Positions 1,128 through 57,392 of a stretch of DNA of 63,745 nt are shown here, in pieces (within the stretch, counting starts at the first letter, position 1; the number at the start of each line of letters is the position of its first letter). The translations under genes were made by a program, and so were the position numbers. The notes under the pieces were generated by a model. That model worked only from the letters and a program-made list of their open reading frames with translations. It had not been told where the DNA came from and ran no database searches. The stretch comes from an uncultured Lachnospiraceae bacterium (GTDB taxonomy: Bacteria; Bacillota; Clostridia; Lachnospirales; Lachnospiraceae), in contig CAJOMI010000001.1 of NCBI GenBank assembly GCA_905235545.1, positions 1 to 63,745 of the forward strand, in the 5' to 3' direction.

Positions 1128-1131
1128 TTAC

Positions 1132-38142: not shown

Positions 38143-38164
38143 ATATGACTTGGAGGACAAAGAT

Positions 38165-38464
38165 ATGACGATTAAAGAGATAAAAAAAGAAGGAGAAATT
38201 TTACTTGAAATCACGGGAAGGATTGATACCACAACGGCACCGGAGTTGCAGCAGGCGATATTGATCGCATTTCAAAAGGTAAAGAAACTGGTGATTGATT
38301 TTAAAGCCGTTGAGTACATATCAAGTGCCGGCTTGAGGGCTCTGTTGATCGGAGAGAAAACAGCCAAATCCAAGGGAAGCAGTATGGTCATTACCGGTGC
38401 AAATGATGCTGTAATTGATATATTTAAGGTGACAGGTTTTATCAATATTCTTACATTGGAATAG
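38165..38464 (+). CDS. STAS-domain anti-sigma-factor antagonist (SpoIIAA/RsbV-like)
   Basis: ITGRIDTTTAPELQQ…LVIDFKAVEYISSAGLRALL…MVITGANDAVIDIFKVTGF, with the conserved phosphorylatable Ser in ISSAGL. ATG 38165 follows GGAGGA (alternative TTG 38150). Confidence 0.8.
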   Translation: MTIKEIKKEGEILLEITGRIDTTTAPELQQAILIAFQKVKKLVIDFKAVEYISSAGLRALLIGEKTAKSKGSSMVITGANDAVIDIFKVTGFINILTLE

Positions 38465-38477
38465 GAGATATTACACA

Positions 38478-39578
38478 ATGAAAAAAGGGAAAATAATACT
38501 ACTGAATCTTGTTATAATTGCATATATCGTAACGGTGGCCGGCTGGTTCTTCAATGACGGAAGACTGTTTTATGGCGGATTTGGAACATTCACGGTTGTT
38601 CTCATCGCATTTATGATTGTTGCTATGATAAGGCCGAATACGCACAAGGATTTACAAGAGGAAGAAATCGAGACGGATGATCTTTATGATGACGGAGAGA
38701 AATATGAGGATAATGGTACGGAGGGAGCATTATCCGAAGATTTCGATGCAGCAGATACGTCGTATGAAACATTGGAACAAATATCGGAACGGTTTCGAAA
38801 TGCCAATCGTCACGATGATGATCAGAATGACGAAAATGGCAGTGAAGAATCGCAGGACGGAGAGGAAATTACGGGAGATATCAGTGAAGAGTCGCAGGAC
38901 GAAGAGGAAGGTACGGGAGATTTTAGCGCAGAGTCGCAGAGCGGAGAGGAAGGCACAGGAGATGTCAGTGCTTACCGGATGGCGATTGAAGATCTGAAGG
39001 AAGAACTTGTCGAGGTGCGTGAGGAGCTGGAACGCGCAAACCATGAATTGGCGGAATTACGGTCCAAAGAAAAGGATTCTCGCGAGAGGGGATTGTCCAT
39101 CCTTCCGGAGAGTATGATGCCAAAGGAAGAACTGGACACCATTAATATCGTTGACGTCGCAAAGGGTGTGGCCGATGAACTTCAAACGGATGCTTTTAAG
39201 GCAGGTCTCAGAGTACAGGTTTCCGCCGGAGAGGAACAGATTCTTGTGCGGGCGGATGAAGAACTTCTCCGTGTTTTGTTCCGCAACATTGTGGACAATT
39301 CAATCAAATATATGAATCGTCAGGGGATTCTGGTCATTACACTTTCTACGATAGGTGATGATCTGTTTGTGGTTTTAAAGGATAACGGAGACGGATTAGA
39401 TCCGGAAGAGACAAATCATATTTTTGAGTTAAATTATCAGGGCTCAAACCGAATATCCGGAAACGGTCTTGGACTTGCACAGGCAAAGGCTGTTGTGGAA
39501 TATTATGGTGGAAATATATATGCGAAATCAACGCAGGGTGGCGGTATGGGAATATATATTCAACTGCCGACATCGTGA
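38478..39578 (+). CDS. membrane-anchored HATPase_c protein with acidic repeats and no clear DHp/H-box
   Basis: Two N-terminal TM segments, then an acidic repeat region and a coiled coil. N-box FRNIVDNSIKY, G1 DNGDGL and G2 GNGLGLAQAK follow. Only a weak NHELAEL string sits where an H-box would be, and the DHp second helix seems missing. Confidence 0.6.
   Translation: MKKGKIILLNLVIIAYIVTVAGWFFNDGRLFYGGFGTFTVVLIAFMIVAMIRPNTHKDLQEEEIETDDLYDDGEKYEDNGTEGALSEDFDAADTSYETLEQISERFRNANRHDDDQNDENGSEESQDGEEITGDISEESQDEEEGTGDFSAESQSGEEGTGDVSAYRMAIEDLKEELVEVREELERANHELAELRSKEKDSRERGLSILPESMMPKEELDTINIVDVAKGVADELQTDAFKAGLRVQVSAGEEQILVRADEELLRVLFRNIVDNSIKYMNRQGILVITLSTIGDDLFVVLKDNGDGLDPEETNHIFELNYQGSNRISGNGLGLAQAKAVVEYYGGNIYAKSTQGGGMGIYIQLPTS
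38844..38972 (+). repeat. three 42-45-bp in-frame tandem repeats (EESQDGEEITGDIS-like)
   Basis: GA(A/G)(GAA/GAG)TCGCAG(G/A)(A/G)CG(G/A)AGAGGAA… recurs at 38844, 38886 and 38931. Confidence 0.7.
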
Positions 39579-39638
39579 TTGTGCAGAATGGTTTGCAGAA
39601 CTGACTGAGAGGTATGAATTATAACCGGAGGTGAAAAC

Positions 39639-39902
39639 ATGTCATTACTGTATTCGAATCTGTCGGACCGTTTGATGGAAGAGAATCGGCGGGTAAATGC
39701 AGAAAACAAACAAAAAAATGATATTCAGCAGGATCAGGATGAGGATGAGATGGGATATGCCTACGATGAGCCGGTGCATTTTGGATTTCTCAATGAGAAC
39801 AGAGGTATCTTTGTCAATAATGACGATGAGAATGCGCTGAATACGGCTAAAAGTGTATTTGACAAGACAGCAGTCTTTCGAGTAAAGCAGGACGAAGACT
39901 AG
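39639..39902 (+). CDS. small acidic hypothetical protein, 87 aa
   Basis: ORF with a GGAGGTGA RBS, in the same orientation, inside the operon. No family recognised. Confidence 0.4.
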   Translation: MSLLYSNLSDRLMEENRRVNAENKQKNDIQQDQDEDEMGYAYDEPVHFGFLNENRGIFVNNDDENALNTAKSVFDKTAVFRVKQDED

Positions 39903-39969
39903 ATGAACATAGCAATAACAGGATAATGTAATGATCGGTCAGATCAATATGAGATGAGGAGATGGAAGA

Positions 39970-42465
39970 TTGGCAGGTAGAAAGAAAAAAACGGATGAAA
40001 TGGAAGAACAGAATGTAGCGTTGGCGGAAACAAAGGGTACGAATGTTAAGAAGAAGTCGGATTCCGATGTGGAAGTGACGGGTGAAGAAAAGAAAAGAAC
40101 GCAAAGACCTTCTACGATAGACGGGAAGAAAGTCTGCGCATTTACGGGCTATGATGAATATATGCGGCATGTATTCCACTGTGTGAACACATGCCTTTCC
40201 GCATATTTGGAGAATATGAAGTTCACCTTTTCAAACGGACAGGGCGGATATAAAAACGTGCTCTATCCGGATTTGGAGATTGCTTCCGATTCCTGTAATG
40301 AGCAGATCATGAAATACGAGCAGATGTATGGGGAGCAGGAGGAAGTGGAAAAAGAGTATACGGAAAAAACAGGGGGAAAAGAAGAATTCGATGAGGATTT
40401 CCTTTCTCTGCTTGACGCATTTTCTGAGACTTCCGACAATGGGCAGGAAGAAAATTCAAAGAGCAACAAGAAATCTTCTGCCTCCGGTTCAAGCAAGGCA
40501 TTTGATGTGTTAGCACGTCTTGAATGGATATCGGCATGTGCGGAACGCACTGCGGAAAACGGAGTAAGGATGCCTTTTTACGAGCTTACAAAGAAGCTTG
40601 AAATGAGTCCTTTTGCAATGTTTACCTTTGCGAGTGGTGTGCTTTCTTCCACACAGACGGATTATGCCGGTATCTTCCAGATTGTGAATGAGAACGGCGG
40701 TCTCTCTTCTCCGACGATAGAAAGTGCGGCCAAAATCTTTTTCGGCCCCAATTATTCAATAACAGGGGCATACGGTGAGATGAGTGAATGCCTTGAAGTA
40801 TTGCTGCCAATCCTGGATCTTAGGGTAGTTTCCAGTATGCCGTTTTCCACGGTAATTTCTCCGGATAAGCGTATTATCGACTATTTGTTCGGCAAAGATC
40901 CTATGCGCCTTGATGAAAATTATATTCGTTTTTTCAAAATGCTTACGAATGATGAGGAACTGGATCCCATTATGGCGAATGATGGTCAACTTGAGGCAAT
41001 GAAAATATCCTACGGTGAGGGTGTCCGTATTTTCTCCTATTATGGAGACGAAGGAAGCGGAAGAAAGTTCTTTATACGTCATTTCTGCAAAGAAAACGAC
41101 CTTGGTGCGATATCGATCAATTGCAAGAAGTTGTTTGTATATGACTTTAATTTTGTGGAAAAGGCTCTGTGGGCAGTGACAAGAGAGTGTATCTTAACCA
41201 ATTCCTGCTGCTGTCTGGATGAGCTTACCTTTAGAGAGGATGAGAAGGAAAAATTCTACGGCTACATGGATCTGGCATTTGCAAAGCTTACGCAAAAGAA
41301 GATACTGGTATTTGCCATTAGCCGTGAGAAGTTAGCCATGAGAGATATTACCAAAGAAGAGGTGACGGAACTTGAGATACCGACCCCTACCAATGAGGAA
41401 CGCGAGAAATGCTGGAATTATTTTTCGGAAAAGTATGCGCTTGATAAGGATGTGGATAAGTTGGAGATGGCGACCAAGTTCCTTTTTACACCGGGTAAGA
41501 TCAAGTCCGCACTTCACAGTGCCAGAAGTCTTGCAACCATGAACAAGGAGATATTGATTTCACGCGCTACTCTGTTCCAGGGTTGTTACGGTCAGATGAG
41601 TTCGGAACTTACCCAGAAAGCTACTAAGATAAAGGCGAACTTTGGTTTTGAGGATATCGTTATGAATCGTGATCAGCGTGAGACGCTGGAGCATGCGATC
41701 GATCAGATGAACTTTAGAAAACAGGTATATGACGGTTGGCACTATACCAAGAAGTATCCATACGGACGAGGACTTTCAATTCTTCTGTTCGGAGCACCCG
41801 GTACCGGTAAATCCATGTGTGCCCAGGTTATCGCGCATGAACTGAATCTTGAACTTTACAGAGTCGATCTTTCAAAGGTTATTGATAAATACGTCGGTGA
41901 GACTGAAAAGTCTATTTCCATGATCTTTCGAGAGGCAAAGAAATGTAATGTCGTGTTGTTCTTTGATGAGTGTGATACCCTGTTTGCGAAGCGTTCCGAT
42001 GATGGAGGATCCAATCAGGCGTCCAACAATAATAAGACTGCTTTGCTGCTGCAGGAGGTTGAGGGATATGACGGTGTGTCTGTGCTTGCCACGAACTACA
42101 AGCATAATATAGATCCTGCGTTCTTCAGACGTATGAAATATATTGTAGAGTTCCAGTTCCCGGATGTGGACACGAGGGAGATGCTCTGGAACACTACGAT
42201 ACCGAAAGACACTCCTTTGGCCGATGATGTGGATATCCGATATCTGGCTGAAAAGTACGAGCTGGTTGGTGGTAATATCAAGAACTGTATACTGAATGCC
42301 GCTTTTCTGGCCGCAGCAGATCCTGAAGCCGAAGGAAAGGTACACATGGTACACTACCTGCAGGCTGTCAAATACGAGTTTGTTAAGGTTGGTAAAGTAT
42401 TTACACGTTCCGATTTTGAGCCTTATGCAGACCTGATCTTCGGAAAACAGGGCAGCCTGATATGA
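39970..42465 (+). CDS. Afp15-like CIS AAA+ ATPase, copy 1 (831 aa)
   Basis: The C-terminal AAA module has Walker A LLFGAPGTGKS, Walker B VVLFFDECD, and VLATNYKHNIDPAFFRRM. The N-terminal region is long and non-ATPase. TTG start after GAGGAG (alternative ATG 40000). Confidence 0.8.
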   Translation: MAGRKKKTDEMEEQNVALAETKGTNVKKKSDSDVEVTGEEKKRTQRPSTIDGKKVCAFTGYDEYMRHVFHCVNTCLSAYLENMKFTFSNGQGGYKNVLYPDLEIASDSCNEQIMKYEQMYGEQEEVEKEYTEKTGGKEEFDEDFLSLLDAFSETSDNGQEENSKSNKKSSASGSSKAFDVLARLEWISACAERTAENGVRMPFYELTKKLEMSPFAMFTFASGVLSSTQTDYAGIFQIVNENGGLSSPTIESAAKIFFGPNYSITGAYGEMSECLEVLLPILDLRVVSSMPFSTVISPDKRIIDYLFGKDPMRLDENYIRFFKMLTNDEELDPIMANDGQLEAMKISYGEGVRIFSYYGDEGSGRKFFIRHFCKENDLGAISINCKKLFVYDFNFVEKALWAVTRECILTNSCCCLDELTFREDEKEKFYGYMDLAFAKLTQKKILVFAISREKLAMRDITKEEVTELEIPTPTNEEREKCWNYFSEKYALDKDVDKLEMATKFLFTPGKIKSALHSARSLATMNKEILISRATLFQGCYGQMSSELTQKATKIKANFGFEDIVMNRDQRETLEHAIDQMNFRKQVYDGWHYTKKYPYGRGLSILLFGAPGTGKSMCAQVIAHELNLELYRVDLSKVIDKYVGETEKSISMIFREAKKCNVVLFFDECDTLFAKRSDDGGSNQASNNNKTALLLQEVEGYDGVSVLATNYKHNIDPAFFRRMKYIVEFQFPDVDTREMLWNTTIPKDTPLADDVDIRYLAEKYELVGGNIKNCILNAAFLAAADPEAEGKVHMVHYLQAVKYEFVKVGKVFTRSDFEPYADLIFGKQGSLI

Positions 42466-42569
42466 CAATAGATCAGAGCATTAGGGGGGCAAAATACCTT
42501 TTGACCCCAACATCATGATATAGATACATAATACTTCGTTAATTATTTTTCGGGAAACGGGGGGATAGT

Positions 42570-45500
42570 ATGGATGAAGTCGTATTGTCTGAAGAAGAGA
42601 TAAAAGAGCTGAAAAATCAGATTTTAAATGGTGTAAAAAATGCGAAAGCTCAAAATATAAAAGAAAGAAAACAAAAAATTTACAATGATAATGCAAATTT
42701 GATAAATGATTATCTGAAAAAACAAAGAGAACAGGAAATAGTACGGCGTAATAGAAAAAAGAAGTCCCGGACCGGTGGTAATAAGAATATCCAAAACAAT
42801 TATAATCGGACAGTAAAGAATGATCAGTCGGATAATTCTTTAAAGAATAATTTTATAAAGAAGGAAGAAGAAAAAAGGGAAGAGATCAATAACAGAATAA
42901 AGAAAAGCTTTCCGGAACCGGAAAAAACAGACGAAAATAAGCTTCCTGAGGTAGAAGGCGGGAAGGGTGTATTTGAGTTGCCACAAGATATGGAAATTGA
43001 AAAACAGCCTGAGGAGAAGAATGCAGGACAGGAAGATGAACTTATCTTAGAGATTAATGGAAAAGTGGTAGATATAGAGAATCTTGAGGAGAGAGTTTCC
43101 GCTGTACCGGGAATGGAAGAAGTAGAACAGAATGAAGAAAATGACCGGCAAGGTGACATTGCGGATCATGTGATCAATGAAGTCGGTGCAGCAAAGAATG
43201 AACCGAATAACGAAGTAGAGGAAGAAGCAAAGAATGAACGGAATAACGAAATAGAGGAAGAAGCAAAGAATGAACGGAATAATGAACCGAATAACGAAAT
43301 AGAGGAAGAAGCAAAGAATGAACGGAATAATGAACCGAAGGAAGAAGCAAAGAATGAACGGAATAATGAACCGAATAATGAAGTAGAGGACGCAGCAAAG
43401 AATGAACCGGAAATAGAATACGATGATTTTCTGAGTGGCTTATATTTTGTGCTGACCGGAAAAGAGAAGAGATATACTGCAGTAGAGAGAAATGAGCTTA
43501 TGGACAAAGACGTCGATAAGCGATTGTTATATCACCGTACGATGCAAAAAAAACTGGAACTTGATGCCGTTAACCAGATTAAAAAGGAAAGAAACAAAAA
43601 TGAGTTCAAAGACAAGATAAAAAATTTTGAAGAGAATATGCGGGATACTGACGGAATGAGGCGGATTGACGGTTTTCTTAAGATGGACTATACCATTTTT
43701 GATAACTTCGAAGACATCTATATTGTGTTGAACTTCGAAAAATTGAATAATGCAATTGAACAGTCGGAACATATTTATAAGGATGTGTTACCTTTAGCAG
43801 TCGAGGCCGGAACCATTGACGAGAACACCCGGGTGAATGTTACCGCGCTTGCAATGGCAATCGATGACTACAAGGAATATATGAATTATCGTATCATGAT
43901 AATAGCAGATGAGAATTATACGTTGGCATTAGACGAAGAACCGTTTAGAATGAACGCAGATGACGCTGCAATTTATGAGAGATTAGACAAGTTCACTTCA
44001 GACAATAATCTGAGTGAAAGAAACCTCAATACTTTGATGCACTTTGTTACATATAAGACCGGCATGAACGGTAATGACAAAGGTGATAGAAAAAGGAATC
44101 CTTTGTTTGCCGAACATTTTAATGATGAGAAGAGCAATATGCTTACCCGTATGCAGCAATACGGGTTTAGTGCTGAGGAAAAGGAAGAAAATGTTGATGA
44201 GGATATCGATGAGGATCTCGCTGCGCTTGAACAACAGGTAAAGGCTGAGGATGTTGATCAGGAGGCTGACAGGGAAGCTGCGAATATTCCTGAAGTCCCT
44301 GAGATACTTATTCCTAAGAGAAGAAGACAGCTTAATTATCTTATAACGGGAAATGATATTATGCCACAAGAGTTGCATGAGGGCGAAGAGAAAAACAGAA
44401 GTGACCTTGCGGGCAAGGCAAGAGAGATATATCAGGCGTGGGAGAATATGAATCCTGAACTTTCACTGGAAAGAGCTCTTCTTGATGTGTCCAAGTATGA
44501 GGAACAGGGTTTTATACTTCCGCCTGAGATACTTGAAGTGGTAAGGGCGGGAATCCGACCGGGAGAATCTCTTGAGGTAAGGAAGGCGAATGCAGATACT
44601 TTGGCTGAAGGAATGTATCGTGGAGATAATGAGGATGCTAAGCAACTTCCACATATATTGATCAGCAATTATATGCGGACTGATTTTTCAATATTTGATG
44701 CGCTGGATGATGAAGCAATCGTCAGTCATTACAACGAAGCAAAACGTCTGTTGAATTATGGTCTTTCTCTGCAGGAGCTGTTTTATCAGACAGCTGATAA
44801 TAAAACCTGTCTGCTTTCGCAGGACAGGGCAGATAATTTTTATGCCATTCTCTCCGCACTTAGGGATTATATGGATTACGCCACAATACGTATGGATATC
44901 ATTAGAAGTCCGTTTTATTCCCTGTTTGATGTTGATAAAGAGATTAAGGAACAGGATATTAAGCAGGTTGAGGATGCAGGTAAAGGAGAATATGAGGCAG
45001 ATTTGTTGATGTATATAAAAAAATATGCAGATATTGCTCCGTATATTGAAAAAGTAAAAAGAGGAGGCTTCTATGAACGTGCTTCGGGTTATGGATATGT
45101 TGATATAAATGAGTATCTTGATGAAAATCCGGAAATGCAGGAGAAATTCAGAGAGTATATCACACAGGAAAAGAATATGGAAATGTTTGCTGTACTTCCC
45201 CAACTGGTGGAGTATTATGGGGAGGAGGATGAGACAGCAATAGAAAATATTGCCCGAAGTAACGAATTGCGAATTGAGCGTAATAATTTTAACAATGTTC
45301 AAAAGGTTGTAGGCAGCAATAAGGATTATGATGAAGTGAAGAACGATCCGAAGTATGAAGAACAGACTGCAGGGCGTGAAGCTCTTTCGGAGAGGGCGGT
45401 TGAACTGATCAACAGTCTGAATGTTGAGGAAACGGATGCCAATATATGGCTGGATGAACTTATGGATACTGATGTGAGCATACTCGATAACATGTCTTCC

Positions 45501-48803: not shown

Positions 48804-48851
48804 ACGAGTCTTGACATGAAATGAGGTCAGGGATAGAAGAGGTGATATACA

Positions 48852-51056
48852 ATGTATGGATACGGAGATTATTATGACGAGAGACTTACCCAAATTCCAT
48901 ATACGGACAGCAGTGAAGAACTTGAGGATTACAGGGCATTAGTTGAGATTATGTTAGAGGATCTGGCGGGAATCAAGGGGGTCGGCACAGAGGAAGGATT
49001 GTTCTCCAAAGGGCTGGTAATCTCCGAAGCAGAGATGCAGGAGTATTTTGTGAATCACCCTTCCGTCAGAGAAAAGGATTTTTATTTCTATATATTGGGT
49101 GATGTGGTGAAACAGGCAATAGGACACATAGAAAGCAGAGAGGAGAGCACATCGGATAATGTCTTTTTGCCCATAAGGAATATCAGAAAGAATTTTGGAC
49201 TCAGTGACGCTTGGACAGTGGCATTGGTACTTGCCTTCCTTGCCCATACGAACAGGGGATATGAGAGAATATATGGATTTTTGCAGGATGATATAGAAAG
49301 CAGTGAACCGACACTGGGACTTGCTGTTTCTTTGTGTGAGAGAGCCTTTTATGAGGATAAACTCAGTGCTTCAGATATACTGTCGGACAAGTCATATCTG
49401 TTCGGAACGTTATTCATGGAGGAGGGAATCAATCCGGTATATCCTCTTCGCACGAAACTGATCCTGACAGGAGCAGCACTGACTTATATGAATGGGAATA
49501 CCACTCTTTTTGGTTATGGTGCCGGGATTCCGTATGGCTTGCTATGTGAATATGAAGACGGGAAGACGCCGGCCTTTTTTGAAAAGGAGGTAAAGGTGCT
49601 TTTCAATCTGATCAGACATGGTGACGCGTTACCGTGCCTGTTTGTGGAAGGCAGGGATCAGGATGCGATCATTCATGTGGCAGCGCTGGCGGCGCGTGCT
49701 AACGGAAAGCGTTTCGTCACCGTGTCGGGTGAGTCAATAAGTACGGCAGATGAAATGGAATGTTCCGGTATGGTGGCTTTTTTGTCTTTTTATGGTCATA
49801 TGGAAGGAATTACGGTGATGGTAACGGATGTGACGGATGAGAGGCTTGCAGATGAATCCTTTACGCGCATATTGAAGAGATTGATCCGGACAGAGGGAAT
49901 TGCCCCATTTCTATTTGCAGGAAGTGATCAGACACCGGAAAGATTTAAGACCGGAGCTGCGACGGGAACGCCTGTCCTCCATTTGCAACTACCGGTACCG
50001 GATGTAAAAGTCCGAACCACGATATGGGATTATTTTATCAAAGATGCCGGATTGTCCAAAGAAAAGGGATTTTCCAGCGAGGAGATCGCAGACTGTTATG
50101 AGGTAGGCTATGGTGTTATCAAGACTGCAGTGTCCCAGGCAAAACTCAATATGCTGGCAAATGGAGTAAAAAAGGTTAACAAGGATATCGTAGCCGATGC
50201 ACTGAAAGGAATCGGAACGGTCAACTTCAAAGGACTGGCCAAGGAGGTGCGGGCAGTCTACACATGGGAGGATCTTTGTATTGGAGATACGGAGCGCAGA
50301 GTGCTTCAGACGGCATGTGACCGCTATAAGATAAAGAACCGCATCGGTGAGAACTGGGGCATTACGAAAAAAAATGCTTACGGAAACGGTGTATCGGTGT
50401 TGTTGTATGGTCCGCCGGGAACCGGTAAAACCATGTCGGCACAGGTGGTGGCAAGAGAAATCGGACTTCCGTTATATCGTGTAGATACGTCGCAGCTCTT
50501 CTCAAAATATATCGGGGAGACACAAAAGAACTTAAATGCGGTATTTGACGAGGCAGAGGCTTCCAATGTGATACTGTTTTTTGATGAGGCGGATGCGCTT
50601 TTTTCAAAGAGGACGGATGTGGAGAGTTCCAATGACCGTCATGCTAATCAGGAAATCGCTTTTCTTCTCCAGAGGATAGAGGAATATAAAGGAATGAGTC
50701 TGCTTGCCACAAACTTTTATTCGGGATTTGATCAGGCATTTGTACGTCGTATCACATACGCGGTGAGATTAGAACAGCCGGATTACGAGACAAGACTCTC
50801 TCTTTGGAACAATACGCTTCCGGAAGAGGTCCCGAAGGAAAAATCAATTGATTATGAATTTTTAGCAAAGAATTTTGAACTTACGGGAAGTAACATCAAG
50901 GCAATCCTTCTCTCGGCTGCTTATATGGCCGGAGCAGAGGACGGAATGCTTTCCATGGCACATATCGTCCGGGCTATGAAATATGAGTTTGACAAGCTCG
51001 GCATGATGCCGGACTCGGGCAAATTTGGACCTTATTCCGTGTATTTGTTTGGATGA
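48852..51056 (+). CDS. Afp15-like CIS AAA+ ATPase, copy 2 (734 aa)
   Basis: Walker A LLYGPPGTGKT, Walker B ILFFDEAD, and LLATNFYSGFDQAFVRRI. The C-terminal module is clearly alignable to copy 1. Confidence 0.8.
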   Translation: MYGYGDYYDERLTQIPYTDSSEELEDYRALVEIMLEDLAGIKGVGTEEGLFSKGLVISEAEMQEYFVNHPSVREKDFYFYILGDVVKQAIGHIESREESTSDNVFLPIRNIRKNFGLSDAWTVALVLAFLAHTNRGYERIYGFLQDDIESSEPTLGLAVSLCERAFYEDKLSASDILSDKSYLFGTLFMEEGINPVYPLRTKLILTGAALTYMNGNTTLFGYGAGIPYGLLCEYEDGKTPAFFEKEVKVLFNLIRHGDALPCLFVEGRDQDAIIHVAALAARANGKRFVTVSGESISTADEMECSGMVAFLSFYGHMEGITVMVTDVTDERLADESFTRILKRLIRTEGIAPFLFAGSDQTPERFKTGAATGTPVLHLQLPVPDVKVRTTIWDYFIKDAGLSKEKGFSSEEIADCYEVGYGVIKTAVSQAKLNMLANGVKKVNKDIVADALKGIGTVNFKGLAKEVRAVYTWEDLCIGDTERRVLQTACDRYKIKNRIGENWGITKKNAYGNGVSVLLYGPPGTGKTMSAQVVAREIGLPLYRVDTSQLFSKYIGETQKNLNAVFDEAEASNVILFFDEADALFSKRTDVESSNDRHANQEIAFLLQRIEEYKGMSLLATNFYSGFDQAFVRRITYAVRLEQPDYETRLSLWNNTLPEEVPKEKSIDYEFLAKNFELTGSNIKAILLSAAYMAGAEDGMLSMAHIVRAMKYEFDKLGMMPDSGKFGPYSVYLFG

Positions 51057-51121
51057 AAAAATAATTACTTAATATTAAGGAGAGGGCCTGCTAAAACTAT
51101 CTCTGACAGAAGCATAAAGAT

Positions 51122-51155
51122 TGTGACATTTATGTGACATTTAATGTGGTATCTT
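51122..51155 (+). promoter_or_regulatory. regulon promoter P5: TGTGACA (51122-51128), TGTGACA (51133-51139), N10, TATCTT (51150-51155)
   Basis: Perfect TGTGAC hexamers at 11-bp phasing with the same N10 spacing. Intergenic, about 90 nt upstream of ATG 51244. Confidence 0.55.
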
Positions 51156-51243
51156 AAGAAAAGATACGTAGAAGGAGAAGAGTGTAAGTTTTTTAAAGAT
51201 AAATTTTTACACCACATAAGAAGATAATAGACGAGGATAGCTT

Positions 51244-52203
51244 ATGAAACCAGATACCAAAACCTATTATGATATTCCTGAAGATTTTATGAATCGCTTA
51301 AAAGAGCGGGGATATAAGAAAGTAACCGGCGAACAGAAGAAAGAGTTCGATCCTTATTATGATAAGATGAATGAACATTGGTGTGCGAATACCAGTTTTG
51401 TGAATCTATGGGGATGGAGTGATACCTTTCCGGTATATTGTAAAATATCAAACGGATATGTATACCTGATCCAATTCCTGCGGACAGACGGATATCCGGT
51501 GGCTAGTCCTTTTTTGGGATGTTATACGAAAGATGGGATTACAGAGGCAATCAGGGAAATTAAAAAGGATTTTGAATATTTTGAGTATCCGTTGGTGTTC
51601 ATGGATATTACGCCATGGATGCTCCCCTATTTTACAGAGACCGGAATTGATTTTGAGATAGAAGATCTTAGAGAACTTCAGGATTATATCTATACACCGG
51701 AGGCTTTATGGGAGGGATTGAATCAATCCGATGATCGTTATCGGTATCGTTATTTTAAGAGAAGATATCAATACGAGACAATAGAACTGAACTCAGAACA
51801 TGCAGATGAGTGTCTGCGCTTCATGGATGAGCATTGGTGTAAATTCGAGGAGTGCAGCAAATGCTGCGGTTGTTTGAAACAAGTGATATTCCGTGTGGTT
51901 TCAAAATTTGACACGCCTGACGAATATGGTATATTGGTACGTGTAGAGGGGAAGACAGCCGGTATATGCATTGTGTCAAACAGAAATGGTCTTGGAATTT
52001 ATCAATACAAAAATGCTGTCAATCAGATCAAGGGAATCAATGAATATTTGTTGCGCGAATGCTTTGAACGCTATTTGCAGAATGTAGATGTTATTAATTA
52101 TACAGAAGATATGGGTATAGAAAATCTGCGTTATTATAAGGAGCATTTGACCTCTCATTATTCGCTGCTCTCAAAATATACATTAAGTGAAAAGGTTAGA
52201 TGA
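51244..52203 (+). CDS. DUF2156 / LPG_synthase_C-like (GNAT-fold, aminoacyl-transferase-like) protein, paralogue A
   Basis: …DYIYTPEAL…DDRYRYRYFKRRYQYETIEL…GILVRVEGKTAGICIVS…KGINEYLLRECFERYL…INYTEDMGIENLRYYKEHL follows the DUF2156 layout as I remember it. It has a CSKCCGC cysteine cluster. Confidence 0.5.
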   Translation: MKPDTKTYYDIPEDFMNRLKERGYKKVTGEQKKEFDPYYDKMNEHWCANTSFVNLWGWSDTFPVYCKISNGYVYLIQFLRTDGYPVASPFLGCYTKDGITEAIREIKKDFEYFEYPLVFMDITPWMLPYFTETGIDFEIEDLRELQDYIYTPEALWEGLNQSDDRYRYRYFKRRYQYETIELNSEHADECLRFMDEHWCKFEECSKCCGCLKQVIFRVVSKFDTPDEYGILVRVEGKTAGICIVSNRNGLGIYQYKNAVNQIKGINEYLLRECFERYLQNVDVINYTEDMGIENLRYYKEHLTSHYSLLSKYTLSEKVR

Positions 52204-55163
52204 TTATGCGATATTTATTTTTAAAGAAACAAACCGAATCAAATGAAGAACGGACAAAACAGGTGAATAAATATTTGGTTGCTATATTGATGTTGCTGCT
52301 GATCGTTTTTTCGGTTTTGCTCTTTCTGTTTAGAGGCTGGATTGGGGAGACAGAACTCTCTTCTTATGCACTGAGTGAGGTCTCTGATATTGCGGCAGAT
52401 CGTGAGGGAAATCTTTATATTTTGGCAGATGCGACGGATGCTGTGTTAAAAGTGTCGCCGGATGGAGTTTTGTTAGACAGAATTCGATTCCCGGAACTCG
52501 ATGATATGTCCTCTGCAATCCATATCGCAGTGGGTGGAGATGATAATATATATCTGCATGAAGTGGTGATCGATCAGGGAGTTTTGCTGGAAAAAGAGCA
52601 GATTGGACGATTGAATTCAAAACTGCATGATCTTGAAGTGCTGGATACCATTTGGGAAAAAGACGGAACCGTGCGGCAGTCTGTTGCAGGTATTGCGCCC
52701 ACAAAAACAGGAATCCGTTATATCAAAAAAGATTCATCCGGTATGGTAGTATATGATGAGAACGCTACGGAGACAGTAAGTTGTTCCTATCCAAAGGCGG
52801 ATGAGCAAATTCTGTATGCCGTTACGGACGATATTGGAAATGATATCTTCTATGTTACATATAATGGAGAGGTTTATCGTTATGTGAATGGAAAAGAGGA
52901 TACCCTGCTCTATGACAGCGATGAACGAGAAGGAAGCGTTCCACAGTCTGTAAGCTATGCAGACGGGATATTGTATGTGACAGATATCGGATTGCGTGAT
53001 ATCATCATGATCAACGTGGACACAGGAGAAATGAAATTTCGTTCTACCGAGGGTGAGATCAAGGAACGTGCGATTGAATATTTTGTATCCGCTACGAATC
53101 ATATGGTGTCTGCAGGGGAATATTCAATTACCCTTTGGAATGAAACGGATTATGTGCAACTGTGGGACTTGGAAATTGGCGGCGGTGTGAAAGCAAAAAT
53201 TATATTCACATGGATTGCGATATTTTATATTGGCATTTTTCTGTTTATCATGTTGACCAGATTGCTTCATTATTTTTTCAGGCGGGCCAATATATATAGT
53301 AAGGTTGCTTTTTTTATCTTTATAGGCGTTGCGATTCTGGTTGCCCTTTTGGTTGGAACGATGTTCCCGGAGTTTCTCTCCCAGCTTACCGAGCAGATAT
53401 ACGAAAAAGAGATTCTTGCAGCTTCCGTGGTGGCAGATCAGATACCGGAAGATTCTTTTCTGGCACTGAATAAGCCTTCGGATTTTATGAATGAGGATTA
53501 TAAGAAAGTGCAAAGTGTGCTGGACAGTGTATTTGCATCGGAAGATAGTGGATCCCAAGCGTATTATTGCGTGCTTTATCGCCTGATGGATGGAGTGATT
53601 ACTCTGACTTATACCATGGAGGATATCTGCGTTGTATATCCTTATGATTGGGAGTATGAGGGAAGCGGAATGCAGGATGTCATGGAGAAAGGGACGATAT
53701 CCCAATACAGCAGTACCAGTAATACCGGTAGTTATCTGTTTGTGCATTACCCGATTACCGGCAGTGATGGGAACATCATTGGATTGGTAGAGGTTGGTAC
53801 CGATTTGAATTCAGTGACAGAAAAAAATAAAAATATTATTCTTTCTATGTTGTTAAATGTATTTGCCATGACAGTGGCTGTCATCATGCTCCTGGTTGAA
53901 ATCATGTATTATGTGAAGGACAGAAATGCTTATATAGAAAAGAATAAACATTCGACAGATCCCGTATCATTGCCACCGGGGATTTTCAGATTTATTGTAT
54001 TTTTAATATTTTTATTTACAAACCTGACCTGTGTGATTCTGCCAATTCATGCAAAGGAGCTTGCGGGGGGACAGGGAATATTTGGTCTTTCTCCGGCTAT
54101 TTCAGCTGCGATTCCGATTTCGGCAGAAGTTTTTTCAGGTGCGGTCTTTTCTGCACTTGGAGGGAAAATCATTGACAAACTCGGTGCAAAAAAGGCGATA
54201 TTGGTTTCCGGTATATCGTTTACACTTGGACTTTTGGTGCGTGTGGTGCCGCATATTTTGATGCTGATTCTGGGTTCTGTCCTGTTAGGTGCCGGATGGG
54301 GCGTGCTGCTGATTATGGTAAATGTACAGATTGCGGAACTTTCAGATGAGGAGAAGGATAAGGGGTATTCTTATTATAGTGTATCCTCTATATCGGGGGT
54401 TAATTGTGGAGTTATACTCGGAGGATTTCTGGTACAGTGGTGTTCCTATACCACAATCTTTTTAATAACCGCTGCAGTCAGTGTGTTGTTATATATTGTC
54501 TGTCGAAAGTATCTTGCAGACAATATGCCGAAGTATGATAAGACAGAATCAGAAGAGAACACATCGGACGGTCATAGTAACTGGAGATTGATTTTAAGTC
54601 CTCGTGTTTTATGTTTCTTTGGAATGGTGTTAACACCGCTTTTGATCTGCGGATATTTCCTGAATTATCTTTTCCCGATCCTGGGATCGGAATGGGGCAT
54701 GTCCGACTCCTATATCAGTTATGCTTTTATGATCAGCGGAGTGATTGTGCTTTGTTTTGGAACGCATTTGACGGAAGTTTTTACCAGACGTAATCTGCGG
54801 CGTTTTGGTCTTACGGTGTCAGTTTTACTTTATGCGGAGGCATTTCTGGCTATGGCACTTATGGAGAATATTCCATCGCTTTTGCTGGCGCTTGTATTGA
54901 TCGGATTTGCAGACAGTTTCGGAATACCACTGTTAACCAGTTACTTTACGGAGCTTGATGAAGTCGAACAGTTTGGTTATGACAGAGCATTTGGTGTTTA
55001 CAGTGTGTTTGAGAACGGCGCACAGTCGCTGGGCGCTTATGTACTGGGTATTGTATATAATATCGGGATACAAAAAGGTATGTTATTATTAGTAGGAGTC
55101 ATCACGATATTTGCATTAGCCTTTTTCTTCACGTCGCTTCCGAAAAAGAGCGCTTGCAAATGA
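52200..55163 (+). CDS. fusion protein: extracytoplasmic NHL/beta-propeller-like + Cache-like sensor region + C-terminal MFS transporter domain, 987 aa
   Basis: ATGA overlap with the upstream gene. Repeated LY[IV][LT][AD]D strings are present (NLYILADATD, GILYVTDIGL). A Cache-like segment (…YLFVHYPITGSDGNIIGLVEVGTDL) follows. The C-terminal part has about 12 hydrophobic helices with the MFS-like GGKIIDKLGAKKAILVSG. Confidence 0.55.
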   Translation: MIMRYLFLKKQTESNEERTKQVNKYLVAILMLLLIVFSVLLFLFRGWIGETELSSYALSEVSDIAADREGNLYILADATDAVLKVSPDGVLLDRIRFPELDDMSSAIHIAVGGDDNIYLHEVVIDQGVLLEKEQIGRLNSKLHDLEVLDTIWEKDGTVRQSVAGIAPTKTGIRYIKKDSSGMVVYDENATETVSCSYPKADEQILYAVTDDIGNDIFYVTYNGEVYRYVNGKEDTLLYDSDEREGSVPQSVSYADGILYVTDIGLRDIIMINVDTGEMKFRSTEGEIKERAIEYFVSATNHMVSAGEYSITLWNETDYVQLWDLEIGGGVKAKIIFTWIAIFYIGIFLFIMLTRLLHYFFRRANIYSKVAFFIFIGVAILVALLVGTMFPEFLSQLTEQIYEKEILAASVVADQIPEDSFLALNKPSDFMNEDYKKVQSVLDSVFASEDSGSQAYYCVLYRLMDGVITLTYTMEDICVVYPYDWEYEGSGMQDVMEKGTISQYSSTSNTGSYLFVHYPITGSDGNIIGLVEVGTDLNSVTEKNKNIILSMLLNVFAMTVAVIMLLVEIMYYVKDRNAYIEKNKHSTDPVSLPPGIFRFIVFLIFLFTNLTCVILPIHAKELAGGQGIFGLSPAISAAIPISAEVFSGAVFSALGGKIIDKLGAKKAILVSGISFTLGLLVRVVPHILMLILGSVLLGAGWGVLLIMVNVQIAELSDEEKDKGYSYYSVSSISGVNCGVILGGFLVQWCSYTTIFLITAAVSVLLYIVCRKYLADNMPKYDKTESEENTSDGHSNWRLILSPRVLCFFGMVLTPLLICGYFLNYLFPILGSEWGMSDSYISYAFMISGVIVLCFGTHLTEVFTRRNLRRFGLTVSVLLYAEAFLAMALMENIPSLLLALVLIGFADSFGIPLLTSYFTELDEVEQFGYDRAFGVYSVFENGAQSLGAYVLGIVYNIGIQKGMLLLVGVITIFALAFFFTSLPKKSACK

Positions 55164-55235
55164 GATTGAAATTGCGGGAAAAACGGATGAATCGACACGA
55201 AGTGGAAACTGCTATGAAAGAGGAGTAATAATGGC

Positions 55236-56900
55236 ATGAAGAGATCAGAAGGAAAGAAGAAAAAAAAGATAGGAAAAAGATTACGTCTGTTTACAACAAT
55301 TGTAATATTGACATTGACTATTATTTTAATTGGTAGTTCCACGGTACTGAATGTTATTTTTTTAAAAAACTTTTATAACGATAAAACGATGCAGATCGCA
55401 AAAGAAGCGGCAGATATGGTGGACCCGGAATATATCAGTGAATTATATGCAGCAATTTCGACAGAAGAGTATCGTCAAATATTTCAAAGAGCAGAGGAAC
55501 AGAATGACTTCTCAGAGGTTGAACAGTGGATGGACGAAAAAGGCTTTCGGACAGAATTTGAACAGGAGATTGCCAAGTTAAAACAATTGGGAGAAAATAT
55601 GTCAGCGAAATATATTTATGTTCAAATCGTGGAGGGGGATAAGTGCTTTACGATTTTAGACCCGTATGAAGAATATATTTCAGTTGGATGTGTAGATGAG
55701 CTTACAGGCAGCGCTTATGAAGATATTCATGGAAACCAACAGGTAACTCCTATCGTGGCAAAAACGGAATATGGCTGGTTGTCGACCGGAGGACAACCTA
55801 TTTACAACACGTCAGGGGACCCGATTGCGATTGCGTTCTGTGATGTTGATGTGACGGATATGGTCAACAATATTGGAAGGACGGTATATATTAATGCAGC
55901 TATAAGTTTATTGATGGCATGTTGTATTTCTCTCTATATGGGAAGACATATCAAAAGAGAAATTACGTCTCCCATTGAAAAACTTACGGATGCGGCAGAT
56001 GACTTCCGAAACGATGAGGCAGGCTTTTCAAAAGATAAGGTTGCTTTTTTGGATATAAATACCGGTGATGAGATTGAAGAATTATATCATGCTATACATT
56101 TCATGCAGGAAAGTATTATAGAATATATGGATAATCTGACCACGATTACAGCGGAGAAAGAGAGAATCAGTGCAGAGCTGGATGTGGCGACACGCATTCA
56201 GGCAAGTATGCTTCCAACAGTATATCCGGCCTTTCCGGATCAAAAAGAGTTTGATATTTATGCATCCATGAAACCCGCGAAGGAGGTGGGCGGTGATTTT
56301 TATGATTACTTTTTAATAGATGATGATCATCTGGGAATTGTGATCGCGGATGTTTCGGGAAAGGGAGTACCTGCTGCACTCTTTATGATGATGAGCAAGA
56401 TTGTAATATCGAACTTTGCGCATATGGGACTTTCGCCGTCGGAAGTCTTGAAGAAGACGAATGACTATATATGCAAGAGCAACGAAGAGGAAATGTTTGT
56501 AACGGTATGGTTTGGAATTATGGAAATATCGACCGGGCATATTGTGGCAGGAAATGCAGGGCATGAATATCCTATGATCCGGAGAAAGGATGGAGACTTC
56601 GAGATCATGGAAGATAAGCATGATTTTGTGCTTGGCGGTATAGCAGAGATGTCATATACAGAGTATGCGTTCGATTTGGAAAAGGGAGATACTCTTTTCA
56701 TCTATACGGACGGATGTCCGGAAGCGACAAATGAGCAGAATGAACTCTTTGGTACAGACCGTATGTTGGAGGCATTGAACAGAAATGCCGATGCAGATCC
56801 AATAGAGATTTTGGAAAATATGACAAGTGCAGTAAATGATTTTGTGAAGAGTTCCCCACAATTTGATGATTTGACCATGCTTGCGTTGAAATTTGTATGA
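55236..56900 (+). CDS. membrane-bound PP2C (SpoIIE/RsbU-type) phosphoserine phosphatase with extracytoplasmic sensor and HAMP-like linker
   Basis: TM LFTTIVILTLTIILIG, a Cache-like segment, a second TM, then ELDVATRIQASMLP…EVGGDFYDYFLIDDDHLGIVIADVSGKGVPAALFMMM…LFIYTDGCPEA…DDLTMLALKF. Confidence 0.8.
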   Translation: MKRSEGKKKKKIGKRLRLFTTIVILTLTIILIGSSTVLNVIFLKNFYNDKTMQIAKEAADMVDPEYISELYAAISTEEYRQIFQRAEEQNDFSEVEQWMDEKGFRTEFEQEIAKLKQLGENMSAKYIYVQIVEGDKCFTILDPYEEYISVGCVDELTGSAYEDIHGNQQVTPIVAKTEYGWLSTGGQPIYNTSGDPIAIAFCDVDVTDMVNNIGRTVYINAAISLLMACCISLYMGRHIKREITSPIEKLTDAADDFRNDEAGFSKDKVAFLDINTGDEIEELYHAIHFMQESIIEYMDNLTTITAEKERISAELDVATRIQASMLPTVYPAFPDQKEFDIYASMKPAKEVGGDFYDYFLIDDDHLGIVIADVSGKGVPAALFMMMSKIVISNFAHMGLSPSEVLKKTNDYICKSNEEEMFVTVWFGIMEISTGHIVAGNAGHEYPMIRRKDGDFEIMEDKHDFVLGGIAEMSYTEYAFDLEKGDTLFIYTDGCPEATNEQNELFGTDRMLEALNRNADADPIEILENMTSAVNDFVKSSPQFDDLTMLALKFV

Positions 56901-56960
56901 AGCGAACAAGGCATTTATCTCGTTAGTGAATCTTGGAGTGATGTTGAGGAGGTATATTTT

Positions 56961-57392
56961 ATGAGTAGCAAGGAAGAATTAGAAATTGAAGCGGTGGTGG
57001 AAAATTTACCGCGGGTACTTGATTTTGTGAATTGCAATTTGGAAAACAAAGATTGTCCACAAAATGTGCGGGTGCAGATTGATATTGCAGTAGAGGAGAT
57101 CTTTGTCAATATAGCATCCTATGCGTATCAACCGGGAAAAGGTCCGGCGTGTATTGAAGTTGAGGTAAAAGACGATCCACTTTCTGTGGAACTAACATTT
57201 ATCGATGGAGGTGTACAGTATGATCCGTTGGCGAAGGATGACCCGGACATTTCAATGTCGGTTGATGAGCGTGAGATTGGCGGACTTGGAATTTTTATGG
57301 TGAAACAAACTATGGATTATGTAGAATATGAATATGTAAATGGCAGGAATATTCTAAGGATAAAGAAAAATTTTGACAACGAAGAGCAATGA
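56961..57392 (+). CDS. RsbW/SpoIIAB-like anti-sigma factor / STAS serine kinase (HATPase_c_2)
   Basis: 143 aa. …VQIDIAVEEIFVNIASYAY…FIDGGVQYDP…GGLGIFMVKQTMDYVEYEYVNGRNILRIKK matches the anti-sigma regulatory kinase pattern. Confidence 0.75.
   Translation: MSSKEELEIEAVVENLPRVLDFVNCNLENKDCPQNVRVQIDIAVEEIFVNIASYAYQPGKGPACIEVEVKDDPLSVELTFIDGGVQYDPLAKDDPDISMSVDEREIGGLGIFMVKQTMDYVEYEYVNGRNILRIKKNFDNEEQ

Follow-up and report, generated by a model that had tools for sequence, protein, structure and literature searches.

In this study we analysed a 63,745 nt stretch of DNA (the window) from an uncultured Lachnospiraceae bacterium (GCA_905235545.1, contig CAJOMI010000001.1), which carries a gene cluster for a phage-tail-like contractile injection system (CIS). 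The genes and features relevant to signalling were as follows.

468..1935 (+), two-component pair at the left end of the island, a LytS-type His_kinase (468-1127) and a response regulator with an OmpR/PhoB-like C-terminal part (1132-1935)
31265..31298 (+), predicted promoter of the baseplate/STAS operon, a TGTGAC-N5-TGTGAG box, 11 nt, then a TATAGT -10 preceded by TGG
38165..38464 (+), single-domain STAS protein of anti-sigma-antagonist type (99 aa), the last gene of the baseplate block
38478..39578 (+), membrane-anchored histidine-kinase-like ATPase (366 aa) directly after the STAS gene, with 2 TM, acidic linker, coiled coil and HATPase_c
39970..42465 (+), AAA+ ATPase (831 aa)
51122..51155 (+), predicted promoter of the LPG319-MFS987-PP2C-kinase operon, a TGTGAC-N5-TGTGAC box, 11 nt, then a TATCTT -10 preceded by TGG
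51244..55163 (+), LPG_synthase_C protein (51244-52203) plus a 987-aa MFS fusion protein (52200-55163), the first two genes of the operon that ends with the phosphatase and kinase
55236..56900 (+), membrane sensor phosphatase (554 aa), with TM, extracytoplasmic PDC/single-Cache-like domain, TM, HAMP, coiled coil and PP2C of SpoIIE/RsbU/SiaA type
56961..57392 (+), RsbW/SpoIIAB-like GHKL serine kinase (143 aa)

The STAS protein matched Pfam STAS (E 1.2e-17) and STAS_2 (E 1.9e-15), and passed the cut-off of the NCBIfam anti-sigma-factor-antagonist superfamily (ant_ant_sig) with 71 bits against 53.45. Its best solved relatives are SpoIIAA-like 4hyl, TM1442 and RsbV 6m36_B. S53 and S54 in YISSAGLR are invariant in 34 homologues, and S54 is the phospho-acceptor serine by family. 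The ATG at 38165 matches the N-termini of the homologues. The gene located 22 nt after Tail_P2_I (37060-38142) and 13 nt before the next gene.

The phosphatase matched Pfam SpoIIE (E 2.3e-50) with a weak HAMP hit. The PP2C signature motifs read in the translation (GDFYD, DVSGKG, TDG and FDD) fall on columns invariant across 40 homologues. The AF2 model (pLDDT 85.9) shows a TM helix, an extracytoplasmic alpha/beta domain (about residues 45-205), a TM/HAMP helix, a coiled coil and then the PP2C domain, the last of which matched RssB, SiaA, Rv1364c and SpoIIE in Foldseek. Modelled alone (pLDDT 94.9), the sensor domain matched the PDC (single-Cache) sensors of CitA/DcuS (Foldseek E 1e-4 to 2e-3, target-normalised TM 0.53-0.67). 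Therefore the description of this sensor as Cache-like in the earlier note is supported at fold level, although Pfam gave no Cache hit.

The kinase matched Pfam HATPase_c_2 (E 2.7e-20), and the N-box (E..N), G1 (DGG) and G2 (GGLG) motifs are present in the translation. The only solved relative found by sequence is Bacillus subtilis RsbW (6m36_A, E 1e-3), and its best NCBIfam hits are RsbW, below threshold. The earlier note omitted the membrane-anchored protein at 38478-39578, which gave a Pfam HATPase_c hit (E 1.9e-20) but no HisKA hit. Through an alignment of 24 orthologs, we found that the His of NHELA is not conserved, so the family has no conserved phospho-acceptor His. This gene occupies the slot after STAS in 16 or more CIS loci. 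The two-component pair, the AAA+ ATPase, and the LPG_synthase_C and MFS proteins were identified by Pfam.

Two operons were revealed. The genes from gp25 through STAS to the AAA+WHD gene (31406-51056) have only short intergenic gaps, and a separate promoter box at 51122 precedes LPG319-MFS987-PP2C-kinase. Both operons carry the same promoter design, which also occurs at 1953, 8583 and 17930, and the box is conserved upstream of gp25 in three related loci (L010, L012 and L013; loci of related genomes are numbered with L here).

No sigma factor was found in the window, either by Pfam on all large ORFs, where no Sigma70 domain was detected, or by phmmer against every ORF of 50 aa or more with approximate SigF, SigB and SigW probe sequences, which could miss very divergent sigmas. 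The 9 kb upstream of the window, examined on a same-sequence contig, also contained none. Thus the observation of the earlier note, a STAS antagonist inside the baseplate operon with an RsbU-type phosphatase and an RsbW-like kinase about 17 kb downstream and no sigma factor encoded in the window, was confirmed, and all three genes look intact.

Through comparison with related genomes, we found that the grouping is not chance. In 44 of the 80 species-level genomes with the closest STAS homologues, many of them gut and rumen Clostridia, the STAS gene directly follows the Tail_P2_I baseplate gene (gp25-J-J-Tail_P2_I) of the same injection-system lineage. With only 10 kb on each side of each STAS gene visible, 21 of those 44 have an RsbW-like kinase gene within 10 kb and 15 also have a Cache-HAMP-PP2C, often touching the STAS gene, and no sigma-70-family ORF occurs in any of the 44. 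Examples are P2_I-MFS-PP2C-STAS-kinase-AAA (L029, L031-L034 and L038) and STAS-ABC-PP2C-kinase (L023). The PP2Cs of relatives show dCache_1+HAMP+SpoIIE. Since the loci were retrieved through the STAS gene, these counts do not give the fraction of all CIS clusters of this lineage that carry it, and a retrieval attempt independent of STAS found nothing.

The split layout recurs in the window's own clade. GCA_024712465.1 has STAS and PP2C-kinase 19 kb apart in the same gene order, and L096 has the same right-hand end as the window. L100 is permuted, with LPG-MFS and a 714-aa PP2C::kinase fusion moved to the other end of the island, next to the two-component pair. L007 is a deletion of ~54 kb joining the left-end regulator genes to PP2C-kinase. 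The order LPG-MFS-PP2C-kinase is the same in L096, L100, L101 and L056, and MFS lies next to PP2C in L029, L031-L034, L038, L051 and L058.

The interpretation of the earlier note was only partly supported. It is right that the three genes are genuine partner-switching parts, of a phospho-switch that normally controls a sigma factor, and they belong to the injection-system island rather than lying near it by chance. The suggestion that a sigma factor encoded elsewhere reads the TGTGAC promoters was not supported: the motif is a tandem direct repeat with 11-bp register placed 11 nt upstream of a TATAAT-like, sigma-A-like extended -10. This looks like the pho-box design of an OmpR/PhoB-type response regulator acting with the housekeeping sigma, not an alternative-sigma promoter. 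Such a regulator is encoded at 1132-1935, where NCBIfam PhoB/CreB/VanR-type hits span the DNA-binding part, and it is the likely reader of the boxes. The other suggestion, a non-transcriptional output on the injection system, is plausible and is our preferred reading, as an inference from gene content. However, it is less of a new use of this signalling logic than the note stated, because sigma-less partner switches already control type III secretion in Bordetella, biofilm in Vibrio fischeri and gene-transfer-agent production in Rhodobacter (PMC8256260). We found no paper describing the association with a contractile injection system.

Considering these results, we suggest with a probability of roughly 55% that this is a partner-switching phospho-module dedicated to the CIS and working without a sigma factor, and so a candidate trigger for when the machine is built or fired. 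The analysis itself establishes that the island encodes an intact STAS protein, a Cache-like/HAMP/PP2C membrane phosphatase and an RsbW-like kinase, that the STAS gene is a fixed member of the baseplate operon in this Clostridial CIS lineage, that the kinase and phosphatase recur inside or at the edges of the same islands, and that the two operons share one promoter type; the mechanism is inferred from sequence, without biochemical or genetic data. In this view, the response regulator would turn on all operons of the island through the pho-box-like TGTGAC repeats, using the housekeeping sigma, and the RsbW-like kinase would then keep the STAS protein phosphorylated on Ser54, the off state. When the extracytoplasmic Cache-like domain senses a ligand or an envelope cue, the HAMP domain would relay the signal and the PP2C would dephosphorylate STAS-P. 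Unphosphorylated STAS would be the active output, as in SypA, SiaC or BtrV, and may bind a CIS component, either the baseplate or the AAA+ ATPase, and license assembly, loading or firing.

The invariant element is P2_I-STAS while the positions of kinase and phosphatase vary, and this pattern fits STAS as the output. The split arrangement in the window would be one of several layouts of a module that is contiguous in many relatives. The AAA+ ATPase, the most conserved protein of the island (median identity 67% in distant CIS loci, against 39-44% for baseplate proteins), is a candidate target, and in one clade the end of the kinase ORF overlaps the start of the AAA ORF (L031, L034, L038 and L040). 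On the other hand, the kinase belongs to a very widespread Clostridial family (6104 hits, with identities of 58-79% among the 120 best listed), of which members also occur outside CIS contexts, for example STAS-kinase-STAS in L004. In a rough NJ tree the CIS-linked kinases are not monophyletic and the window's kinase nests with non-CIS ones, so it could serve other STAS proteins or a target elsewhere.

A canonical anti-sigma circuit with a remote target is possible but less likely. Here the kinase would sequester a sigma factor or another transcription factor encoded elsewhere in the genome, dephosphorylated STAS would release it, and the output would be transcriptional, on the island or on other genes. 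The three families are those of the RsbU/V/W and SpoIIE/AA/AB systems, the conservation and wide distribution of the kinase family fit a conserved, non-CIS partner, and the organism looks like a spore-former with sporulation sigmas (CspB-like and SleB-like genes). However, no sigma gene was found in the window, in the 9 kb upstream or within 10 kb of the STAS gene in the 44 related loci. The five promoters of the island, with their sigma-A-like extended -10 and response-regulator-type repeats, need no alternative sigma, and the fixed gene pair is baseplate-STAS, not STAS-kinase-sigma.

It is unlikely, though conceivable, that the module controls envelope remodelling linked to the machine rather than the particle itself, with the STAS protein or the kinase regulating membrane or cell-wall functions encoded beside it, in order to prepare the Gram-positive envelope for anchoring, exit or self-protection. 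The LPG_synthase_C/MFS pair may form a split MprF-like lipid aminoacylation and flipping system, a role inferred only from Pfam, and LPG_synthase_C-MFS-PP2C-kinase is a conserved unit. In relatives, an FtsE-like ABC_tran ATPase of about 220 aa (MlaB-MlaF style) directly follows the STAS gene in 21 CIS loci, and an SH3_3 protein (TM-SH3b) occurs in 13. The STAS protein has a weak MlaB similarity, and regulation of an ABC ATPase by a STAS protein is known (MlaFB, PMC7367683). However, the ABC ATPase and SH3b genes are absent from the window and its clade, where the STAS gene is retained, and no permease partner was seen.

The weakest alternative is that the three genes are not one module, with STAS acting with the adjacent His-less HK-like ATPase or alone and the distal pair serving another STAS protein elsewhere in the genome; the 17 kb distance, the separate operons, the non-CIS relatives of the kinase and the HK-like gene taking, in 16 loci, the slot that the RsbW-like gene occupies in others would fit it, but all three genes are contiguous in many related CIS clusters, the distal pair stays attached to the island in four further genomes despite changed flanks, a permutation and a fusion, the two operons share a promoter box, and all three islands of the 366-aa HK type for which we located the STAS and PP2C/kinase genes together (the window, GCA_024712465.1 and GCA_017525525.1) also carry the PP2C and kinase, so the HK-like gene does not replace them.

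The closest known systems are the RsbU-RsbV-RsbW and SpoIIE-SpoIIAA-SpoIIAB modules of Firmicutes, which comprise the same three families: a single-domain STAS with the conserved phospho-serine, a HATPase_c_2 GHKL kinase and a SpoIIE-family PP2C. The window differs in having no adjacent sigma factor, in the genes being split over two operons 17 kb apart, in the STAS gene fixed behind a baseplate gene, and in a phosphatase carrying an extracytoplasmic Cache-like sensor and a HAMP domain. Bordetella BtrU-BtrV-BtrW is likewise a partner-switching trio encoded with, and acting on, a protein-injection apparatus, with control that is post-transcriptional rather than through sigma sequestration, and in the account of the review phosphorylation of BtrV promotes binding to BtrW (PMC8256260). 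Its machine is a T3SS and not a contractile phage-tail-like system, and the phylum is different.

In Vibrio fischeri SypE-SypA and Pseudomonas aeruginosa SiaA-SiaB-SiaC-SiaD, both sigma-less switches, the unphosphorylated STAS-like protein is the output. SypE fuses the kinase and PP2C, as does the fusion in L100. SiaA is a membrane HAMP-PP2C, and is the best NCBIfam hit and a top structural match of the window's phosphatase. One relative, L045, has a GGDEF protein between its kinase and PP2C genes. The outputs of these systems are biofilm polysaccharide and c-di-GMP, not an injection machine, and SiaC is not a classical STAS protein.

Rhodobacter capsulatus RbaV-RbaW-RbaY is a partner switch that governs production of a phage-derived particle, the gene transfer agent (cited in PMC8256260). 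It is not encoded inside the structural cluster and acts on expression through the CtrA network, and the particle packages DNA and is not an injection device. The type VI secretion threonine-phosphorylation pathway (PpkA-PppA-Fha1) gives post-translational phospho-control of the assembly of a contractile injection machine, with a PP2C phosphatase (PppA, also a structural match of the window's phosphatase) and a membrane sensor input. It uses a Hanks kinase and an FHA protein, while no Pkinase or FHA domain was found by Pfam in the window, where the chemistry is GHKL kinase plus STAS.

Nearly all large ORFs of the window lie on the + strand, and the GC content is about 0.42. Through Pfam searches of the large ORFs, a contractile injection system (CIS) island was identified, with the hits Pvc16_N, DUF4280, Phage_sheath_1, Phage_T4_gp19, two CIS_tube, Phage_base_V, GPW_gp25, two Baseplate_J, Tail_P2_I and two AAA, which together supply the sheath, tube, spike, baseplate, cap and AAA+ ATPase expected of an eCIS/Afp/PVC-like cluster. 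The features are as follows.

468-1127, LytS-type His_kinase at the left end of the island
1132-1935, response regulator with PhoB/CreB/VanR-like similarity through its C-terminal part
2068-17915, block of seven large genes
18080, Pvc16_N cap
19430, DUF4280/PAAR-like protein
19838, sheath
21633, tube
26732 and 27652, two CIS_tube proteins
30369, VgrG-like Phage_base_V
31406, gp25
31830 and 34918, two Baseplate_J proteins
37060, Tail_P2_I
38165-38464, single-domain STAS protein, 99 aa
38478-39578, membrane-anchored HATPase_c protein (HK-like)
39970-42465, first AAA+ ATPase
42570-48803, 2077-aa protein with no Pfam match
48852-51056, second AAA+ ATPase
51244-55163, LPG_synthase_C protein and 987-aa MFS fusion protein
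55236-56900, SpoIIE-family PP2C phosphatase, 554 aa
56961-57392, HATPase_c_2 GHKL kinase, 143 aa
57408-61547, SleB-like cell-wall hydrolase and, later, a CspB-like subtilase
58637-59689, further LPG_synthase_C paralog

The block of seven genes includes a MORN-repeat protein and a 746-aa protein with weak OEP similarity, while the other five had no Pfam match; it is conserved with the island in two related loci (L059 and L100; L numbers denote the loci retrieved from relatives) and may be an anchoring or envelope-crossing apparatus. The 2077-aa protein lies between the two AAA+ ATPases, giant proteins of 1993-2266 aa occupy the same place in relatives, and it could be cargo, a toxin or a fibre. 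Both AAA+ ATPases gave their best NCBIfam hit, below cut-off, to the anti-phage ATPase IteA. Three LPG_synthase_C (aminoacyl-phosphatidylglycerol synthase-like) paralogs lie in and around the island (the third at 925-1827 of L001), and the one paired with the MFS fusion protein is a possible split MprF-like lipid-modification unit that travels with the phosphatase. The SleB-like hydrolase (Hydrolase_2) follows the kinase gene after 15 nt; these spore-germination-type genes are not conserved beside the island in relatives, and GC rises to 0.48 at 60-62 kb. STAS homologues that carry a name are from Lachnospiraceae MAGs, and a contig with identical proteins comes from an ENA metagenome assembly. 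This contig ends near window position 58,667, and exact-protein look-ups for the flanks of the window found three proteins not on record.

The earlier note had described a partner-switching trio split over two operons with no sigma factor in the window, and this observation holds. The STAS protein is of the anti-sigma-antagonist type (Pfam STAS E 1.2e-17; NCBIfam ant_ant_sig above cut-off), and its putative phospho-acceptor serine (S54 in YISSAGLR) aligns with the phospho-serine position of SpoIIAA/TM1442-type proteins and is invariant in homologues. The phosphatase (Pfam SpoIIE E 2.3e-50) has intact catalytic motifs, and D354, D372, D492, D544 and D545 are invariant. A confident AF2 model predicts a TM helix, an extracytoplasmic alpha/beta domain at about residues 45-205, TM/HAMP, a coiled coil and then PP2C, of which the PP2C part matches RssB, SiaA, Rv1364c, SpoIIE and RsbX. 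Modelled alone (pLDDT 94.9), the sensor domain matches CitA/DcuS PDC sensors and chemoreceptor Cache domains, so that the “Cache-like” label of the note is supported at fold level. The kinase (Pfam HATPase_c_2 E 2.7e-20) has N, G1 and G2 boxes in its translation and RsbW is its only solved relative by sequence, but the NCBIfam RsbW equivalog scores fall below cut-off, so it is not an RsbW ortholog. The phosphatase and kinase genes are separate in the window, with a 60-nt gap, and lie 17 kb from the STAS gene in another operon, although both operons carry the same promoter box; in many relatives the genes are contiguous.

No Sigma70 domain was found in any large ORF of the window, SigF, SigB and SigW probes found nothing among all window ORFs of 50 aa or more, and there was no Sigma70 domain or probe hit in the 9 kb upstream or in 44 related CIS loci. 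The probes could miss very divergent sigmas, but they did pick up ECF sigmas in a few unrelated loci, so they work; these ECF sigmas were seen only in non-CIS loci, and 3.4 kb downstream on the opposite strand in L098.

The note missed one gene, the membrane-anchored HK-like protein directly after STAS. It has a long acidic linker, and its family's coiled coil has no conserved histidine in 23 of 24 members, so it is probably not a classical sensor kinase. In Pseudobutyrivibrio loci (L056, L057 and L060) an OmpR-type regulator gene lies between the STAS gene and this gene. We considered that it replaces RsbW as the STAS kinase, but the three HK366-type islands (those with the 366-aa HK-like protein) in which the STAS and PP2C/kinase genes were located together also carry PP2C and kinase, and replacement was rejected.

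To ask whether the grouping is more than chance, one genome per species was scanned with a STAS alignment, which returned 80 loci with ±10 kb of flank, and the proteins of the window were mapped onto them. Forty-four are CIS loci, and in all 44 the STAS ortholog directly follows gp25-J-J-Tail_P2_I; they come from Lachnospiraceae, Butyrivibrio, Acetatifactor, Oscillospiraceae, Anaeromassilibacillus, Flavonifractor, Pseudoflavonifractor and Caccousia. Seven more loci have other island genes next to the STAS gene. Of the 44, 21 have an RsbW-like gene within 10 kb and 15 also have a PP2C, sixteen show only the HK-like gene, and seven show neither, several of which are cut by contig ends. Because the loci were retrieved by STAS similarity, these counts do not give the fraction of this CIS lineage that carries the gene, and a scan of viral contigs with a Tail_P2_I alignment returned nothing. 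A metagenome scan with the PP2C returned only 6 distant loci. Two STAS loci sit on contigs labelled Escherichia coli (L086) and Dehalococcoidales (L019), which are probably binning or contamination errors in the source assemblies.

Contiguous layouts include P2_I-MFS-(D-Ala-D-Ala-ligase-like)-PP2C-STAS-(ABC ATPase)-kinase-AAA+ (L029, L031-L034, L038), STAS-ABC-PP2C-kinase (L023) and STAS-kinase (L015, L017, L041). In Oscillospiraceae the kinase and PP2C lie on the opposite strand just after STAS (L036, L037, L045, L049, L052, L054, L070). The genes lying between kinase and PP2C there are a GGDEF diguanylate cyclase in L045 (10837-12090, - strand), reminiscent of SiaD, and a C-A-T-R NRPS-like reductase protein of 1419 aa, confirmed by Pfam in L036 (9976-14232, - strand), with similarly sized ORFs at this position in L049, L052 and L070. 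The PP2Cs in these loci carry Pfam dCache_1+HAMP+SpoIIE. One CIS locus (L015, 7909-10128) has a ClpB/ClpV-like double-AAA ATPase shortly after STAS-kinase, recalling the T6SS sheath recycler. More distant STAS homologues (40-50% identity) sit in ordinary STAS/PP2C/kinase trios without CIS genes.

An ORF of about 220 aa directly follows the STAS gene in 21 CIS loci (L016, L020-L023, L025-L030, L032-L035, L039, L042, L046, L053, L061, L068), and we considered that it might be the missing sigma; it is an FtsE-like ABC ATPase, with no visible permease. A TM-plus-SH3b protein follows the HK-like gene in 13 loci. Both are absent from the window and its clade, and the pairing of STAS with the ABC ATPase recalls MlaB-MlaF.

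The split layout is conserved in the clade of the window. In GCA_024712465.1 the STAS gene (71% identity) and the PP2C-kinase pair lie on one contig and the same strand, about 19 kb apart, and the gene order is that of the window: STAS, HK-like, 85-aa protein, AAA+, giant protein, AAA+WHD, two ORFs, LPG_synthase_C, MFS, PP2C, kinase. Locus L096 shows the same right-hand end followed by unrelated genes. In GCA_017525525.1 the unit LPG_synthase_C-MFS-PP2C::kinase, with phosphatase and kinase fused into one 714-aa protein (L100, 10001-12145), sits at the other end of the island, next to the His_kinase/response-regulator pair and about 40 kb from the STAS gene. Such fusions of SpoIIE and HATPase_c_2, of about 700 aa and like SypE and Rv1364c, also occur in several database homologues (P0260, P0263, P0299, P0310). 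Comparison of the longest contigs of STAS and kinase homologues, as a sign of co-location, matched only the window's own contig, while for PP2C against STAS it did work (contigs of 77,240 and 55,210 bp).

We first suspected that the phosphatase-kinase pair was a housekeeping module merely next to the island, because in locus L007 a 75% kinase homologue sits beside hprK/murB/whiA with no CIS. This was rejected, as L007 (7808-10415) derives from a natural deletion of about 54 kb covering the whole CIS: window 408-1256 (the His_kinase gene plus the first 125 nt of the regulator gene) is joined to window 55962-57374 (PP2C from about codon 243, its last two thirds, plus the kinase gene), and other close homologues keep the island context. 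The phosphatase-kinase pair thus stays attached to the island through changed flanks, a permutation, a fusion and a deletion.

Five intergenic regions share a TGTGAC-N5-TGTGA(C/G) direct repeat, followed after 11 nt by a TATAAT-like -10 that is preceded by TG.

1953-1969, before u595
8583-8599, before the OEP-like gene
17930-17946, before Pvc16
31265-31281, before gp25
51122-51138, before LPG319

The box before gp25 is conserved in L010, L012 and L013. Two repeats in 11-bp register replace the -35 element and sit about 10 nt from the -10, which is the pho-box design used by OmpR/PhoB-type regulators with the housekeeping sigma, and it fits the OmpR/PhoB-like response regulator at 1132-1935. 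So, on this sequence evidence, the STAS operon and the phosphatase-kinase operon belong to one island-wide regulon, which does not call for an alternative sigma. The interpretation in the earlier note is therefore only partly supported: it had proposed either a sigma encoded elsewhere, possibly reading the TGTGAC promoters, or a non-transcriptional target such as CIS assembly or firing, and of these the promoters speak against the first as reader of the boxes, while the second is our preferred inference.

The gene content, the intact motifs, the recurrent gene order and the shared promoter box were observed directly, whereas phosphorylation of STAS by the kinase, its dephosphorylation by the PP2C, phospho-dependent binding, signal sensing and any action on the CIS are inferred. 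The fixed pair is baseplate-STAS, while the kinase and phosphatase move about, fuse or switch strand; in canonical systems the fixed unit is antagonist-kinase-sigma, and no sigma gene was found within the ±10 kb visible around the 44 STAS genes. We therefore favour a SypA/SiaC/BtrV-like logic (PMC8256260), in which the kinase would hold STAS phosphorylated, the Cache-HAMP-PP2C would dephosphorylate it when its extracytoplasmic domain senses a ligand or envelope cue, and unphosphorylated STAS would then act on a CIS component. Candidate targets are the baseplate and the AAA+ ATPase at 39970, the most conserved island protein, with median identity of 67% in distant loci against 39-44% for baseplate proteins. 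In one clade the kinase gene overlaps the start of this ATPase gene, which we considered as a “sigma position” argument, but the overlap holds in that clade only and is a weak hint. Tentatively, and rather less likely than not, we might speculate that STAS is a phospho-switchable checkpoint that docks directly on the baseplate or the AAA+ ATPase, so that an extracellular ligand would decide post-translationally when particles are assembled, loaded or fired; this would be the first defined signal-to-trigger pathway hard-wired into a CIS cluster, conserved across gut and rumen Clostridia.

Among the other explanations, a remote sigma or transcription factor held by the kinase remains possible. 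The kinase family is large (6104 hits, with 58-79% identity among the 120 best listed) and also occurs without CIS genes, and a rough NJ tree places the kinase of the window among non-CIS ones, with the CIS-linked kinases not monophyletic, which suggests repeated recruitment, or shared use of the kinase. Control of envelope functions encoded beside the module may also be considered, namely the LPG_synthase_C/MFS unit and, in relatives, the FtsE-like ABC ATPase after STAS and the TM-SH3b proteins. An incidental grouping is the least likely, since the phosphatase-kinase pair stays attached to the island through several rearrangements.

What tells a contractile injection system to assemble or fire is largely unknown outside the T6SS. 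Here a sensory module with a predicted extracellular Cache-type input, a putative reversible phospho-switch and a small putative STAS output appears to be genetically built into the machine, its STAS gene being found there in at least 44 species-level genomes of rumen and gut Clostridia. An earlier survey reported eCIS as depleted from mammalian microbiomes (PMC8213781). The module gives a concrete handle for experiments: a ligand to find, one serine to mutate, and a small protein whose partner can be fished. It also widens the list of sigma-independent uses of partner switching, and the split gene layout in the window is one of several arrangements of a single module.

Full-text literature searches found no paper linking partner switching, STAS, RsbW or SpoIIE-type phosphatases to contractile injection systems, nor one on this association in Lachnospiraceae, and the large eCIS survey lists GerE, BTAD and histidine-kinase regulators but not this module. 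The association is real, conserved and apparently undescribed, though its parts are those of RsbU/V/W and SpoIIE/AA/AB; it differs from these in that the defining adjacent sigma was looked for and not found. The PpkA/PppA/Fha1 pathway of the T6SS has the same purpose but different chemistry, and no Pkinase or FHA Pfam hit was found on any large ORF of the window. The system is best placed as working like a sigma-less partner switch, for which the other nearest functional analogues are BtrU/V/W, acting on the T3SS, SypE/SypA, SiaABCD, and RbaV/W/Y, acting on gene-transfer-agent particles.
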